Source: Rozella allomycis CSF55 (Eukaryota). Taken from it: a DNA stretch of 21,862 nucleotides. The position numbers and the translations under genes are program-made. The stretch is from positions 62,001 to 83,862 of the forward strand of contig KE561161.1 of NCBI GenBank assembly GCA_000442015.1, in the 5' to 3' direction. The notes under the pieces were generated by a model, which saw only the letters and a list, made by a program, of their open reading frames with translations, was not told the origin of the DNA and ran no database searches. Shown piece by piece: positions 3,555 to 20,286 of this stretch. The number at the start of each line of letters is the position of its first letter. The first letter of the stretch is position 1.

Positions 3555-4414
3555 TTATTCTTTGGTCTCTTTGTTTTCTGATGACTTTGTTTGAATTGAC
3601 GGGAGGGGATTTTTGTCTTCAGAAATTTCAGGATAATATTCTCTTATTGGTTGACTCTTTTGAGCCAAGGGGGTAACATTTGGCCTTGTTGGAGTGTAGT
3701 GAGAATTATTGGAATACATTCCTTGATAATTGAAATTGGAAGGCGTCGATGGCTGCGCAGAGCGTTGATGATAAGAATAATGCAATGGATGAGACTGTTG
3801 ATGAGGTGATTGTTGGAAAGATGAGCTATTTAGAGGAATTTGAGACGTTGCTTGAATTGGAGATTGATAGTAAGGACGAGATACAACTGGCCTTGGGGTA
3901 TTTGAATATTGTGGAAGTCTTAGTGGCTGCCTAACTTGAGCTTGGCTAAGCGATTGGGTTGACGGCTGAGTAGCGGATGAAATGCCCCCTGCAGTATTTG
4001 GGGCATGATAAGAATCAAATGGCCGTCCAAGGCTTTGTGGGGCTCTCTGGTTGGTTAAAAGAGACAATTTAAAGAAATTTGGATTAATATCGATTGGAGC
4101 AGGAGTTGCATGGCTATTTTTACTAAACAAGAAAATTACCTTCCCTGGCCTTGCCTTAAATAAGCGATTCTTTGGCGCGCAATTTCGTGTGTAGAATCTT
4201 GATCAAGAGCCTTTTGATAAGCGTCTAAAGCATCGTTGACTTGATTGTTGCAAGATTCATATAAAACACCCAAGTTAAACCAAACTTCAAAGATAAACGG
4301 AGAAATGTGGATGGCCCTGCTGTAGGCGTCCAACGAGTCACGAAACTGGCCAATCTTGTGGTAAAGAATCCCAATGCTGCACCAGTACGCTGGATTTCTA
4401 CTGTCACGATAAAC
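3555..4414 (-). CDS. CYC8: Cyc8/Ssn6 TPR co-repressor, 3' part only (last TPRs plus Q/P/S-rich tail); 5' part lost at the N at 4416
   Basis: VYRDSRNPAYWCSIGILYHKIGQFRDSLDAYSRAIHISPFIFEVWFNLGVLYESCNNQVNDALDAY matches the final TPRs of Ssn6/Cyc8. 26-nt GT-AG intron 4114-4139 links to ORF 3555..4130. Confidence 0.88.
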
Positions 4415-4415
4415 A

Positions 4416-4416
4416 N
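4416..4416. other. Single N, probable assembly or scaffold junction
   Basis: Cyc8 homology stops exactly at the N and an in-frame stop (4430-4432) lies just beyond it. Confidence 0.8.
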
Positions 4417-4463
4417 TAATTTTAAAACCCTAATTCCGACCAATCATCATAGAATATCTCCCC

Positions 4464-4626: not shown

Positions 4627-5657
4627 ATGATGTGTGTTTTCAGGTGGATTTATATAATTTTAATATTCTACAAAGATCTGTGCTCACCTAACGTGATTGA
4701 CAATATAACAAATCTTGATATCCCTGTACAATATATTTAAAAATATTTTAGTTCATTTATCCATTTCATATGATACCTTATTGTCAGCATGAAGAGTATG
4801 AGGCAATCGAAAAGTTGGGTGAAGGAGGTTTCGGATCAGTTTACAAGGTGATTAACGTAAGGACCAGGAGAATATACGCCATGAAAACGACTACCGCCTT
4901 AAACAAAGAAAACTTGGATTCAATTTCTCAGTCATTTTACCGTGATGTTCGCGCACTGCATATGATGAATGATACATTTGTCACTCCGAACATTTATTGT
5001 TTCAACAATGAAGGACCGAGATATTATTTTATCATGGACTATATACCAGGAAAAAGCCTTAAACATGTTCCAAATACCCTAGTTAATGTAAGAAATGCTT
5101 TAAGTAAACTTGCGATGTCTATAAATGAGCTACATCAGCGCGGCTTGATTTGGCTTGATGTGAAAATGGATAATATAATATATTATGAAGGGAATATTAA
5201 GATTGTAGATTTTGGATTTTCTGTGACAAAGGACGATGGGCCTTCAATAATAGGTGGAACAGTCATGTATCTTTCCCCTGAACACCTAAAGTACTTCAGA
5301 ATGGATAGAAAAAAACTTATGCCAACGTCCGTTTTCGATGAATCGAGCGACTGGTTTTCATATGGCGTCATATTCTATATCTTGAATGGGCGGTTATTAA
5401 ATAATGGCAAGCGTTACTATCCTTACGAGGTTATAGATGAGACTTCCATTGAACCATTATACACAAAGGATGAAGACTACATCAAAGTCTACAGGTGGAT
5501 TCAGACAAAGCCTGAAGGGTATGACAATGATGCATGGAATTTGAGCAGAATTTTTTTGTTTCAAGACAAAAGAATACGTTTTGGGTCAAAACTTGTCCCC
5601 TACAATATATATGACCTTTTGAATCATCCGTATTTTAAACTGCGAAATAAATACTAA
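4627..5657 (+). CDS. Divergent Ser/Thr protein kinase with putative N-terminal signal peptide
   Basis: GEGGFGSVYK, AMK, WLDVKMDN, DFG, GTVMYLSPE, SDWFSYG. Exon 4627-4725 (MMCVFRWIYIILIFYKDLCSPN..) joins in phase 0 through 26-nt GT-AG intron 4726-4751. The kinase call is firm; the first exon is less certain. Confidence 0.85.
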
Positions 5658-9230: not shown

Positions 9231-11472
9231 TTATCGATCATTAAATTTATGAGGATTCCAACAAAGGTTCTCTGGATTAACTCTAAGTTGAGGCTTTAGA
9301 TTAAACTTTTTTAAAGAATTTTCGATCTCTTCTGTGTCAATCTCAATGTAGAACTCTGGTGGCCCGTCTACGCTCGCCTCAGATACTCTTAGCATATTAC
9401 AATTTTCTAATGCGCTGACAACGTCATCATTTGTCATTCCAGTCAAGGAAGATATTTCTATTTCGCTAAAAAACAATATCGTACGTGTTATTGTTGTAGG
9501 TTCACGCACATCGCTTATGGCTTCTAAAACTCTCTGCTTCCAAAATTTCCTGTAACTTATTAGACCTAAATCACTTAATGGTTTCTCAGGGGTTCCAAGT
9601 ACACCTTCAACTGACGACAGCAGATAGCTAAATTCGATGAGGAAATTTCCATATCCTTTTCTTTGATACGTTGGCATAGTCAAAATACAAGATACGTTGA
9701 AATTAGATGCTGAACATTTTTCCTGTGAATAAAGCGCACCATGAACTCTTACTTTTGAAAAGTAGCCCACAAAATGGCAGCCTTCGTTATCCCATTCGGT
9801 TAAAATATAAAATAGAAAAGGCTCTACGTCATAATAAAGAGTCTTGTGATCTAGAAACATTTTGGCGAACAGACATAAATTTTGACAGTAGATCTTTCGT
9901 AAGTTACACATGCCCTTACTTTATTGGTGGATCCATTAACTTCAAAAATAGATAATGAATCATGTCGATATATTTCGTCCCCGGGCGGATGGTTGCATTT
10001 GCATTTTACCATGTGACGAACGAGGACGACATAAGATTTCATGTATTTGAAGCAATACTCACAAATATACAAGATCCCATTGTGTGTTATATATTCCTCT
10101 GGATACGGCGCACTATACCAGGGATCAATTTCATACTTCCCAAATAGAATTGTTCTAATGCGATTGGGCGTAATTTGAGGGGTATGATTAGCTGCACTCA
10201 AATATGGTAAAGGTATATTTCTTGTTAAACCAGTTTGCAAAGAGTTGAAAGATGAAGGATTTCTAAAAAATCCAAGCGGTATTTGAGGAAAAGACGACTG
10301 TCCGCCCTGAATAGGAAACTTTGCCAGACTTGAATTTGCTACAATACTATTATGTTGAACGTTTGGTTTAAATGCATCTGATGCAAAACCGTTGAAGGTT
10401 GGCATCGTCTTGAAAGGATTCATGAAAGGATTATGGGCTACAATGCTAGGTGCACTAGTCTTATTAGAGTTTTCTACTTCTCTTTGTTTTGCCCTTGAGT
10501 CGGATAATTTGAATTTCATAATATCATCGTTTTCCGGTCGACACTTTGACGTATCTGCTTGAGTTGCAGAAAGAGCCCCTTGCATCATATGATATATATC
10601 ATCACAAGTAACTAATTTCTTTTTAGCCATTTCTGAAGCTGATCTTCGTGATATTGGGGTTCCTTCTATTATTATCGAGGTCTTTCTAGGAGTATTTCTT
10701 GAGGGCACTATAAGCTCAGACGGGATCTGCGCGGTAGTCTTTGAAGGTCGGCCTCTTTTTCTTTTAAACATAATTTTTCCGTTTTCATTGTGAATGACTT
10801 CCATATTCTTTAAACCGAAAGTTTCACCTTCAATTGTGGTCGTTCCCAAAAAATTCTTCTTTAAAGGAAGAGTGACGATAAGATTCTTCAAAGTAGTTTT
10901 ACTAAGTCTCGATTCATTTATCGTTTTGAGACTCTCCGGTAGAACGTTTTCTCCATTTACCATTTTACCCAAAAGTTGCGACTTCCAATATTCATCTTGT
11001 TCATTAACAACTGATTTTGGTAATAATAATTCACGCCCATTTTTATCTCTGATACAACAAAATGCGCAACTATTTTGGCCTTCTATTTTCTGAGAACAAG
11101 AAGGGTCATTGTGGAACGCTCTATCACAACCAGGGCATAAAATAGCATCTTCCTTTTTTTCTGTTTATCAAATATCATTTACCAAAGAAATATACTTTCC
11201 GCATTTACTACAGGTTTTACAAAGAGAACATTCCCAGCTATATTCTACTAACCTCTCTTTGCAACAATTTCTGAATCTATCGTCCGACAAAGAATCTATA
11301 GAAGGCTTGATAAAATTTTACATGTTGAGTCACATCCACTGCATTTTAGGTTTGGAGCCAAGAAATCAGCTAACTCAATATTACTATCGCCTGCGCGTTT
11401 TTCAGCATACTCGGGGAATTTTATATTCTGAGAAACATTTATATTTGCGTTTTCCTCCTCTGATGAGGTCAT
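9231..11472 (-). CDS. MYST-family histone acetyltransferase (Sas3/KAT6-like) with N-terminal PHD module and AT-hook
   Basis: [78 protein letters not shown]-terminal [23 protein letters not shown] and KRKRGRP. Introns 11296-11321, 11153-11182, 9894-9919, 9723-9752, 9458-9484. Confidence 0.92.
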
Positions 11473-11666
11473 GTTGTGATTTCGAATTTTGCTGGTTTGA
11501 AAAAATAATTTCCGTGCTTCTGTAGCAAAAATAAAACAAAACGTTTTTATTTATTGAATTAAAATAGAGAGCTTTTGAAGTATTAGTTAGTGCAAACACT
11601 GCGCCACTAATGCGATTAATACGATGTTAAAAATTAAGAATAATTTGCAATATAATACCAAATCAT

Positions 11667-13185
11667 TTATTTGCCGAACAGCTTGAGGCCTATTTTAGTA
11701 CTGGTAGAATTTTTATGATCGTTTGAGGTTAATCGAAGCGACTCAAGTTTCTTCCTTCGTTCTTCCAGCTCCATCTTTTGATTCTCCAAATGCTGTTTAA
11801 CTTCCTTGTGTTTAGTAAACAATTCTTCCTCCGTTTTCTTCAATTTTTGTTCTTTTTCCTTGACCTTATCTTCAAGCATTTGGCGTAATTCAGACTCTAA
11901 CTCTTTCAATTTGAGTTCATGATTTGCTGGCCCAACCGATGTATGGTAATGGGATCTTTGATTTTTTCAGTCGTGAAATATTACACATGGTCATTATCAG
12001 ATGAGTTTAATAATTTTTGTGCTCGAAAATTCTCATATAAAACAGTATTGGTGTATTCCTTTAAGTCTTCCATATTTGAACTATCTACACTAAAGAGACA
12101 AAGTACCGAATTAATAATTGTCTTAGTTTAGCAAAATCGTTGTGTTCCTCATTGTCAACTTTTCAAAGTTGACCGAAACCTTTACCTTCGATGACACCCC
12201 ATGGATATTTTCTTCCCCGAACTTTTTTACCGTTAATTTCAAATTCCTGTGTGCTGCCAACTACGGCAAAGGGCATTTTCTCCTTTGATAAAACAAACTC
12301 GGAAGCTTTACAATGAGTTCATGATTTTCTGACATTGTCTCTTCATCATCGTATTGATCGGCAAGTGGTTGATAAATTTGAATGCCGTGATTAGCAATGT
12401 CTTCTTTAATCAATATTTAGAATCCGCAATTTATTACCCGGGCTTTGAATTGAATGATTTCTTCTTCCGTCATTGTGTCAGCCTTTGCAATAACTGGAAT
12501 CAAGTTCGCCCTCTGGTGAAGTCGCTTCATAAACTCAACATCTACAGCGCGTAGACTGAAAATATTCATTTTAATATTTACCTATGGCCAGTTGCGGGAA
12601 TAAAATAAAGCAAGGCATGAACTCTCGTGTCAATAATGTCTTTACGGTTAACCCGGGATTCCTGTTCCAAATATGAGTTGAAACGAGATTCAATACATTC
12701 TAGAATCGGCTTCCAGCTAACTTTGTGGTTAAAAATATATGTACCAATCTTGGTTGTCAATGAAATCGCCAAAGCCAGGCGTGTCGATTATAGTGAGATG
12801 CAATTGAACACCATTTTCAGATATGTCTATTAAAATGGAAAATAAAGAATACTTCCTTGAACTGATTGTATTTCTACAGTTTTAGGGGTTTCATGACTAG
12901 GCTCTTTTTCTTCTTTTGCTGGGTAGATATATGAATTAAACAGAGTATTGACCATAGTTGACTTTCCTAAACCGGATTCCCCTGATAAACATCTCCGAAT
13001 ATCTCTACCAACAACCATCATGGTAAAATTGAAGCCTTTTTTAACAGACTTCCTATGAATTTGATTAGGTAAGTTGGAAAATCCGACATACCCATTCAAA
13101 TGGCGCTTAGTACACTTTTATTGCAGCTATTATTTTTTACCTTCTCGAACTTTGTATCTTCTATTTTATGCTCTACTTCTATCAT
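11667..13185 (-). CDS. CDC3: Septin, Cdc3/SEPT7 group (11 exons)
   Basis: [51 protein letters not shown], and a C-terminal coiled coil [16 protein letters not shown]. Introns 13115-13140, 12982-13008, 12827-12852, 12717-12744, 12556-12581, 12411-12437 (GT-TG), 12283-12311, 12159-12185, 12081-12106, 11956-11984. Confidence 0.92.
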
Positions 13186-13621: not shown

Positions 13622-15124
<1,503 letters not shown>

Positions 15125-18513: not shown

Positions 18514-20286
18514 ATGAAGTTTAATTTCGAAGATATAAGATCCGATGCCGGTTATGTTTTCTTGAAACCTCTGACAATGGGGAAATTGCCATTTGTATTG
18601 TTTATTGACGTTGATTACTTTCCGATACGCTATATTAGTATGAGTGTATTTTTCATAACACAGCTAAAAATGAATTGAATAACTTTTTTGAAGGCATCAA
18701 AGCGCTTTCGAAAGATCGCGAGTTATTTGACTTTATTATGACTTCAGAATATGAAATGTTAAGCTTAAATCAGATGTGGGATGCCTTCCACTGTAGGAAA
18801 ATCAAAGGGGAAGTTACATCTATATTTGAGAGTAATTATACATAAATCTACTAGTCAGAAAGAATAAATGAGTGTTGTAAGTGGGTAGAAAATCTGATGG
18901 TTATTGTAATCTCGGACAGGATTGTCATCAAGGACCTGCACAAAGAAATTAGCATTATATGGATTTGCTCTTCGGCAAATGAAAATCCAATTGGCGATTT
19001 TAAGATAGAAACATCAATGTTTCTAAGAAATTGTGGGTTAGGCAGGCTTATTCCTGATATCAAATACAACGAGCGATTTCAAAAAATATTAAAGCTGATA
19101 CTTATGGAAAAGTTATTGGATAAATTACACGACAGAAAATGGAACAAAGTCGTTAATTTTATCAGTAAATTTATTGGCCTATGTATTTAAGGTCAAAACT
19201 TTAAGGCTTTCTTAAAAGTGAATCCTTTAGACTGGCTAACTGATTCAATATCTTCAGAATTTTTAATTACTAGGGATGGTAAAATTGAACGGGGGCCGAA
19301 AATCCCCACGGAAATAACAAAGGTCTACCAAATATTGTGTGCAGCATTTTTTGATATTGGAATAACCGTTACAAAACTAGTTGAGCTTATAGAAGCGAAT
19401 TTAAATGTCTTTAAAGGTGTTGGTTTAAAGGATAAAGATGACATCGTCAACTTTCTGATTGAATGTCGATTAGTTAAGGACAGGAATGGGGTTTTAAATA
19501 GTTCCATTTTTCATGGGACAATAAAGGACCCAATTGCGAAAAGAATAGATGACAGTGATCTTGAATTAGTATTGTTGAGGTTTAGGAAAGTTCTCATAAG
19601 ACACATGGAGTTTCATATTGATGCTACAATAAGAGTAACAAGTGTAAATCTAATTTACACTTAGGTAGAAAAATTATTTGGCATTTTGTCAAATCTAATT
19701 GATGATGGTATCCTTCTTAATTCGCATGCATAATACAGGCATAATACCTGCTTATTCTAGAAATCTGTTTGTTGAGACATTGGAGCAAAAGGGATTTATC
19801 AAAAGTAGAGGTGGAAAACTAATTTCTTTGACTGAGTCCTTTTTGTCTAAGTATGAAGGTAATTATCTTTATCGCCAATAATATGTGGTGCCTAGCATGG
19901 CAAACACTACTTCACAAAATTCATTAGATGGCGAAGAACAAAAGGCTGGTGAAAATGTTGCAAAAAAGAAAACCAATTTCAAATCGATTAAAGAAAATCA
20001 AGTTGCTCCAAAAACAAAAGCAGAATCTAATTGTAACGTCGTGGTGAAAGATGTGATTGATGATGTTCCCGTCAAGAATATTCTGGATGATGTGTCCATT
20101 AAGAAGATTCTCGCGACATTGAAGTTTATGAAATTTTTTCATAAGAAGACAAGTTTTACATTTGATGAAGTCAAGAAACGTTATCTAAAAATGTTTAGTG
20201 GTTCCGAAAACGACGCCAATTCCAAATTTGACATGGCAGCTAGGCAAAAGATAATAACTGTAGTAGATAATAAAATAATCGTTTAA
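18514..20286 (+). CDS. Multi-exon hypothetical protein, possibly degenerate NYN-like domain plus winged-helix repeats
   Basis: Introns 18638-18663, 18832-18858, 19165-19191, 19635-19664, 19708-19738 and 19859-19885 (GT-TG; alternatively GT-AG 19851-19895) join ORFs 18897, 19218, 19699 and 19885 into one frame. The domain call is tentative. Confidence 0.65.

Follow-up and report, generated by a model that had tools for sequence, protein, structure and literature searches.

Genomes with tiny introns are known from Paramecium, microsporidia and nucleomorphs. In Rozella, introns of ∼30 nucleotides (nt) are described for the S23 gene in the accessible part of PMC6349667. The closest described parallels for a TG in place of the 3′ terminal AG of U2-type introns are human, with TG 3′ splice sites in 36 genes, which the available text presents only as alternatives to an AG at most 28 nt away (Szafranski et al., 2007; PMC2374985). 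Two such TG-AG tandems, in GNAS and TSPYL2, are cited as examples in the accessible portion of PMC4176328. Among fungi, the available part of PMC11590231 reports 22 GT-TG introns with transcript support in Ganoderma lingzhi, amounting to 0.024%. A limited literature search returned no report in which TG acceptors form a class in tiny-intron organisms, and none of non-canonical splice sites in Rozella. Here, we describe a 27-nt intron in a septin gene of Rozella allomycis CSF55, located in a stretch of 21,862 nt (contig KE561161.1, positions 62,001 to 83,862), the whole of which is referred to as the window. The genomic 3′ end of this intron reads TG, and we estimate the probability that it is productively spliced at this TG, as a U2-type intron, at about 55%.

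The insert lies on the minus strand between the codons TTC AAA GCC CGG and ATT AAA GAA GAC ATT (Table 1). Because it carries an in-frame TAA inside the septin coding frame, as the original prediction had stated, it needs to be removed. Its last G is at 12411 and position −2, at 12412, is a T; hence, the 3′ terminal dinucleotide is TG and not the AG of a U2-type intron. The two nearest downstream AGs, which would make introns of 34 and 37 nt, were said to be out of frame with the phase-0 GT donor, and indeed their products stop after 239 residues for the AG at +7 and after 238 residues for the AG at +10. These frameshift products score 347–349 bits with a septin profile hidden Markov model (HMM), compared to 584 bits for the in-frame removal of 27 nt. 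Like the human tandems, the Rozella intron has a GT donor of normal strength, a pyrimidine at −3, a purine at +1, and AGs within 28 nt of the TG, at +7 and +10. Unlike in the human tandems, the TG would be the sole productive acceptor, as both AGs cause a frameshift and the gene is apparently single-copy; moreover, the intron is only 27 nt long, in a genome where nearly all introns are 26–29 nt.

Table 1. Positions in the window of the septin gene, its unusual intron with the alternative borders, and the other candidate GT-TG introns.
Feature	Position	Strand	Details
Septin gene, whole model	11667..13185	−	11 exons, 10 introns, 412 residues; ATG at 13185, stop at 11667
Septin exon 6	12438..12555	−	ends FKAR; holds the G4 motif AKAD
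27-nt intron	12411..12437	−	donor GTAATA at 12437; 3′ end ATATTG; in-frame TAA at 12419..12417
Septin exon 7	12312..12410	−	tblastn matches in 78 of 80 loci
Nearest downstream AGs	12405..12404 (+7) and 12402..12401 (+10)	−	34- or 37-nt introns with the GT donor, frameshift
Slid alternatives	AT...AG 12430..12404; GC...AG 12427..12401	−	in frame, stop-free, 27 nt each
Second candidate GT-TG intron, thiolase gene	13661..13688 (28 nt)	+	would join a 13-codon ATG exon (13622-13660) to the Thiolase_N exon
Third candidate GT-TG intron	19859..19885 (27 nt)	+	donor GTAATT; gene without a Pfam family

The other nine introns of the septin model are GT-AG introns of 26–35 nt. Downstream of the insert, the septin frame stays open through four canonical introns and the sequence is conserved. 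Exon 6 alone matches positions 127–164 of the Pfam Septin profile (E-value 1.2e-13, 51.4 bits), and its tblastn matches cover 80 loci with 52–79% identity. The defining motifs of GTPases are G1 (GxxGxGKS/T), G3 (DxxG), and G4 (xKxD); the model protein carries G1 and G3 as well as G4 in the form AKAD, and has a coiled-coil tail. The protein EPZ32335.1, deposited for this locus, scores 234.8 bits with Pfam PF00735 (Septin), the curated cut-off being 26.2. Of 20 candidates, 9 gave hits, and the best named ones are Cdc3 (Coemansia, Kickxella, and Taphrina) and AspB (Marasmius). Judged by the names of these hits and not by a tree, the gene probably encodes a septin of the Cdc3/AspB type. Apart from the two deposited models of this locus, no second Cdc3-like protein of Rozella appeared in the protein searches (9 of 20 and 6 of 6 hits).

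To compare the site with other septins, we scanned metagenome contigs with the read-through peptide and obtained 80 septin loci, of which 78 could be scored with both flanking exons placed (L063 and L073, having no exon-7 match, were left out). In 45 of the 78 loci, an intron lies exactly between the R and I/V codons of FKxR-(I/V)LxDI, in phase 0, while the remaining 33 are continuous at FKxR-I, with the same spacing as that restored by removal of the 27 nt. All 45 homologous introns begin with GT and end with AG, and their lengths range from 24 to 78 nt. In structures, too, the insert corresponds to a gap of exactly nine residues, as a phmmer search against the PDB showed for Septin-1 (8dkt_A, E-value 1.4e-12) and Septin-7 (3tw4_A, 3t5d_A). 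The claim that excision at the TG restores the septin spacing is thus borne out.

Since 45 of the 78 loci share the boundary and 33 share the restored spacing, the insert is very probably the orthologous septin intron with a non-canonical 3′ end, that is, one whose genomic sequence ends in TG. The FKxR-(I/V) boundary is thus an old and widely retained intron site, and the comparison fixes the exon-exon junction at R-I. The Rozella intron resembles the introns of fungal Cdc3/AspB septins in the codon boundary, the phase, the GT donor, and the restored spacing, and differs from them in its end, as all 45 have AG. The original prediction had proposed comparing the orthologous position and acceptor in related species: the position agrees in every intron-bearing locus, while the acceptor does not. 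Of the GT-TG intron as it was first proposed, the presence of an intron, its length of exactly 27 nt, the GT following CGG, and the genomic TG are supported by the 45 loci and by the donor scores given below; the cut of the RNA at the TG and the role of intron length are inferences.

Among the intron-bearing loci, one AT-rich metagenome contig (L076:1-1316, 37% G+C) encodes a septin 44% identical to that of Rozella. Over 996 aligned nt, its frame is broken only at R-I, by a 24-nt GT...TAG intron, and around position 985 there may be another intron of 24 nt. This contig may come from another tiny-intron relative. A search for proteins of nearly the same length yielded no independent Rozella fragment at the site: all six hits (6 of 6) were from other organisms, and these fragments run up to FK(Q/A)RV, where each has a GT donor of its own.

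In order to see what is usual in this genome, introns were predicted ab initio with a dynamic-programming gene finder written for the window and trained on it. Run with TG as the sole non-AG acceptor, it predicted 74 introns, 11 of which were dropped as artefacts, as they fused genes, lay antisense to another gene, or removed conserved septin sequence. The curated set comprises 60 GT-AG and three GT-TG introns, and all 60 introns ending in AG start with GT. The majority of the GT-AG introns (55 of 60) are required to hold a frame open. Among the five others, at least one is false: at 5205-5231 (+), an in-frame 27-nt GT...AG called as an intron actually codes for a kinase DFG motif. As intron-like strings of this kind occur inside exons, ab initio intron counts are approximate. 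Lengths of 26–29 nt account for 49 of the 60 introns, and for 45 of 55 in the reference set described below, with a mode at 27 nt. As in tiny-intron genomes, the introns of the window are thus very short, with a narrow range of lengths and AT-rich interiors. GTAAT opens 11 of the 60 introns, and ATAG closes 15, being the second commonest ending. An internal AG that would shorten the intron (15–26 nt) is skipped in 20 of the 60. Since the lengths are narrow and early AGs are passed over, the 3′ cut seems to be set largely by distance, as if governed by a ruler or a minimum length. Read by eye, the introns of the window offer no more than a loose T(G/A)A or CTAA pattern as a possible branch point. 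The assembly has one N in the window, at 4416, in or beside the minus-strand gene at 3555-4450.

The splicing that we consider most likely would proceed as follows. A U2-type spliceosomal intron, inherited from an old fungal intron, would interrupt the single Cdc3/AspB-type septin gene. The strong GTAATA donor would fix the 5′ cut, and the 3′ cut would be placed mainly by distance, given the very narrow range of intron lengths. The second catalytic step would accept the TG at 27 nt, possibly with help or competition from the AG at +7, in the manner of the human TG-AG tandems. The messenger RNA (mRNA) would read FKAR-IKEDI across the junction and give the full septin.

Two protein models of R. 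allomycis that cover the septin locus have been deposited, EPZ32335.1 from the original assembly and RKP21059.1 from a single-cell assembly. Both (9231-13185, −) join the septin to the MYST histone acetyltransferase that lies downstream of it, both retain septin intron 2 (13008-12982) as coding, and both jump from RVN to QDIANHG, thereby losing exon 6 and the G4 motif AKAD. In EPZ32335.1, the Septin match picks up again at profile position 164. Both public protein models of the septin gene are wrong. As they bypass the insert, automatic gene finders are evidently unable to handle this intron. When only canonical introns were allowed, our own gene finding rescued the frame solely by a 34-nt intron combined with a false 28-nt intron, which put exon 7 out of frame; as exon 7 has matches in 78 of the 80 homologous loci, we discarded this model.

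Several observations weigh against splicing at the TG, and we give them here together with the alternatives that they favor. To begin with, the protein profile hardly tells which 27 nt are removed. Of 319 in-frame, stop-free excisions scored with the septin HMM, the best 14 are all 27 nt long, and an intron slid to AT...AG (584.7 bits) or to GC...AG (581.2 bits) scores within 2.4 bits of GT...TG (583.6 bits), which gives no discrimination. The GC...AG intron had been named as the only alternative; it does exist, but the AT...AG intron had been missed. The AT...AG product has VIKD after FKAR (FKARVIKD), and a V in the first position after the junction is found in 17 of 78 homologues. The GC...AG product has VINY in place of IKED (FKARVINY) and does lose the conserved acidic residues, with Y at a position occupied by D in 72 of 78 homologues and by Y in none. 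The splice signals separate the three variants better. Scored against 55 reference introns from our own gene models of the window, the GT donor context has 3.2 bits and stands at the median (3.0), and the context upstream of the TG, with 2.2 bits, exceeds 44 of the 55. By contrast, none of the 55 scores as low as the AT donor (−8.6 bits) or the GC donor (−3.1 bits), while a consensus GT sits 7–10 nt upstream of these two, and the acceptor context of the AG at 12402..12401 (−2.4 bits) is also below all 55. In addition, no AG-ending intron of the curated set starts with anything other than GT, and the orthologous intron follows R in phase 0 in 45 of 45 loci. We therefore regard a slid intron as quite improbable. 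A slide by one base, to GG...TT, would yield an identical mRNA and cannot be distinguished by sequence; the GT...TG borders are preferred because of the consensus. Removal or bypass of the insert by other means was considered as well. The XBP1 intron, spliced by the IRE1/HAC1-type mechanism, is 26 nt long, similar to the 27-nt insert, and U12-type introns accept varied termini, their hallmarks being an (A/G)TATCCTT donor and a TCCTTAAC-like branch site. However, the donor here is GTAATAAA (GTAATA) and not an ATCC-type motif. The twin stem-loops of IRE1 substrates are absent (minimum free energy −6.7 kcal/mol, z-score +1.16, with 180 of 200 shuffles folding equally well or better). For a translational bypass, the take-off codon CGG and the landing codon TTG do not match, and the long stop-free frames found elsewhere in the window under the standard code oppose read-through of TAA as a sense codon. 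As the insert has all traits of the ordinary introns of this genome, a U12-type or non-spliceosomal origin is hardly credible.

The likeliest of the alternatives, although itself unlikely, is that the TG is real yet unused: the RNA would be spliced to the AG at +7 (or +10), with a frameshift and truncation, which would leave a hypomorph or a very recently formed pseudogene that long-term culture might tolerate. In the available text of Szafranski et al. (2007; PMC2374985), no human intron relies on TG alone, and AG>TG mutations bring neighboring AGs into use rather than the TG. Frameshifting splicing to the AG at +7 is plausible here, too: its context (12405..12404) scores 1.6 bits, the median of the 55, and the curated set includes introns as long as 35 and 37 nt. 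By eye, a CTAA motif inside the intron, a possible branch point, precedes this AG by 13 nt and the TG by just 6 nt, which may favor the AG. The small share of GT-TG introns in G. lingzhi also counts against splicing at the TG. On the other hand, a gene spliced in this manner would lack half of the septin, with the low profile score given above, while the frame, the four canonical introns, and the conservation are all kept downstream, and no second Rozella protein of this kind appeared in the searches. Next in order, and also unlikely, comes an ordinary intron that truly ends in ATATAG, the T at 12412 being a base-call or assembly error, an allele, or a culture variant. A single T>A change (minus strand) at this position would create ATAG, the ending of a quarter of the curated introns (15 of 60), and the sequence upstream of the TG is a good acceptor context. 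Assembly errors in genomes of this group are reported by curators in the accessible part of PMC13393502, and since several residues of the neighboring gene are not the same in the two deposited assemblies, variants or errors do exist near the septin site. Against this, EPZ32335.1 and RKP21059.1 bypass the insert alike, which would be needless if either assembly read TAG, although the two models are possibly not independent; and up to two further TG candidates within 21.9 kb would require more errors at the same intron position. Splicing at the TG thus remains the reading that we prefer.

The residues at which the assemblies differ lie at the N-terminus of the acetyltransferase (∼11160-11330, −), within a segment of some 60 residues. 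There, RKP21059.1 and the window show R/K, V/L, G/R, and I/M, and one L is missing; outside these residues, RKP21059.1 is nearly identical to the window across the segment. EPZ32335.1 matches the window wherever RKP21059.1 differs. The differences could reflect allelic variation or errors of assembly.

To look for further introns of this type, we let the gene finder use any non-AG acceptor at equal cost and with a stricter penalty. It chose eight non-canonical introns, of which four end in TG. The fourth TG pick is a 60-nt artefact antisense to another gene, and the remaining four, ending in TT, AC, GT, and TA, have atypical lengths, those checked bridging separate gene models. Three non-canonical picks combine a typical length (27–28 nt) with a strong donor, and all three end in TG: the septin intron and two on the plus strand (Table 1). 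In the thiolase gene next door, positions 1–37 of the Thiolase_N profile of Pfam match 13686-13805 (+), and just upstream of this first domain exon there is an in-frame TAA, with neither an AG nor an in-frame ATG. Because of this, the thiolase gene also needs a non-canonical step. The 13-codon exon joined by the candidate GT-TG intron codes for an arginine-rich peptide resembling a mitochondrial presequence, and such an exon with a donor arises in 95 of 20,000 dinucleotide shuffles of the upstream region. The thiolase case is stronger than that at 19859-19885, where the AG at +10 would shift the frame with that donor and a canonical 45-nt GT-AG intron (19851-19895) is an alternative. For the gene around the latter site, a Pfam search with the two longest flanking frames gave no hit.

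Both additional candidates, however, rest on our own ab initio models, and the thiolase N-terminus could also be explained by a 25-nt GT...AA intron or by a TTG start; these points weaken the case for splicing at TG. A Rozella thiolase protein was not found among the 107 hits (165 candidates) to the first domain exon. The best matches of this exon (13686-13805) are from Bacteroidota (Saprospiraceae, Hymenobacter), with 66–72% identity, and the named hits include no eukaryotic protein; either simple conservation or an ancient transfer could account for this.

If all three candidates are real, GT-TG introns make up three of the 63 introns in the window, more than 100 times the share reported for another fungus, as G. 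lingzhi has the same GT-TG combination at 0.024%. It is a tentative, and on balance rather doubtful, proposal that R. allomycis sets the 3′ cut by distance, tolerates TG as the sole acceptor, and has a few per cent of constitutive GT-TG introns. If true, such introns would include those of essential conserved genes, and their wide occurrence would explain why automatic gene models in the Rozella genome are frequently broken.

Rozella and its relatives are much used for reconstructing early fungal and microsporidian evolution, and gene finders restricted to GT-AG introns will mis-model such genes in these genomes. Should RNA confirm the septin junction, an ancient and conserved intron would depend on TG as its one productive 3′ splice site. 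This would point to a distance-based choice of the 3′ site in a genome with ultra-short introns, and would offer a natural setting in which to study site recognition in the second splicing step.
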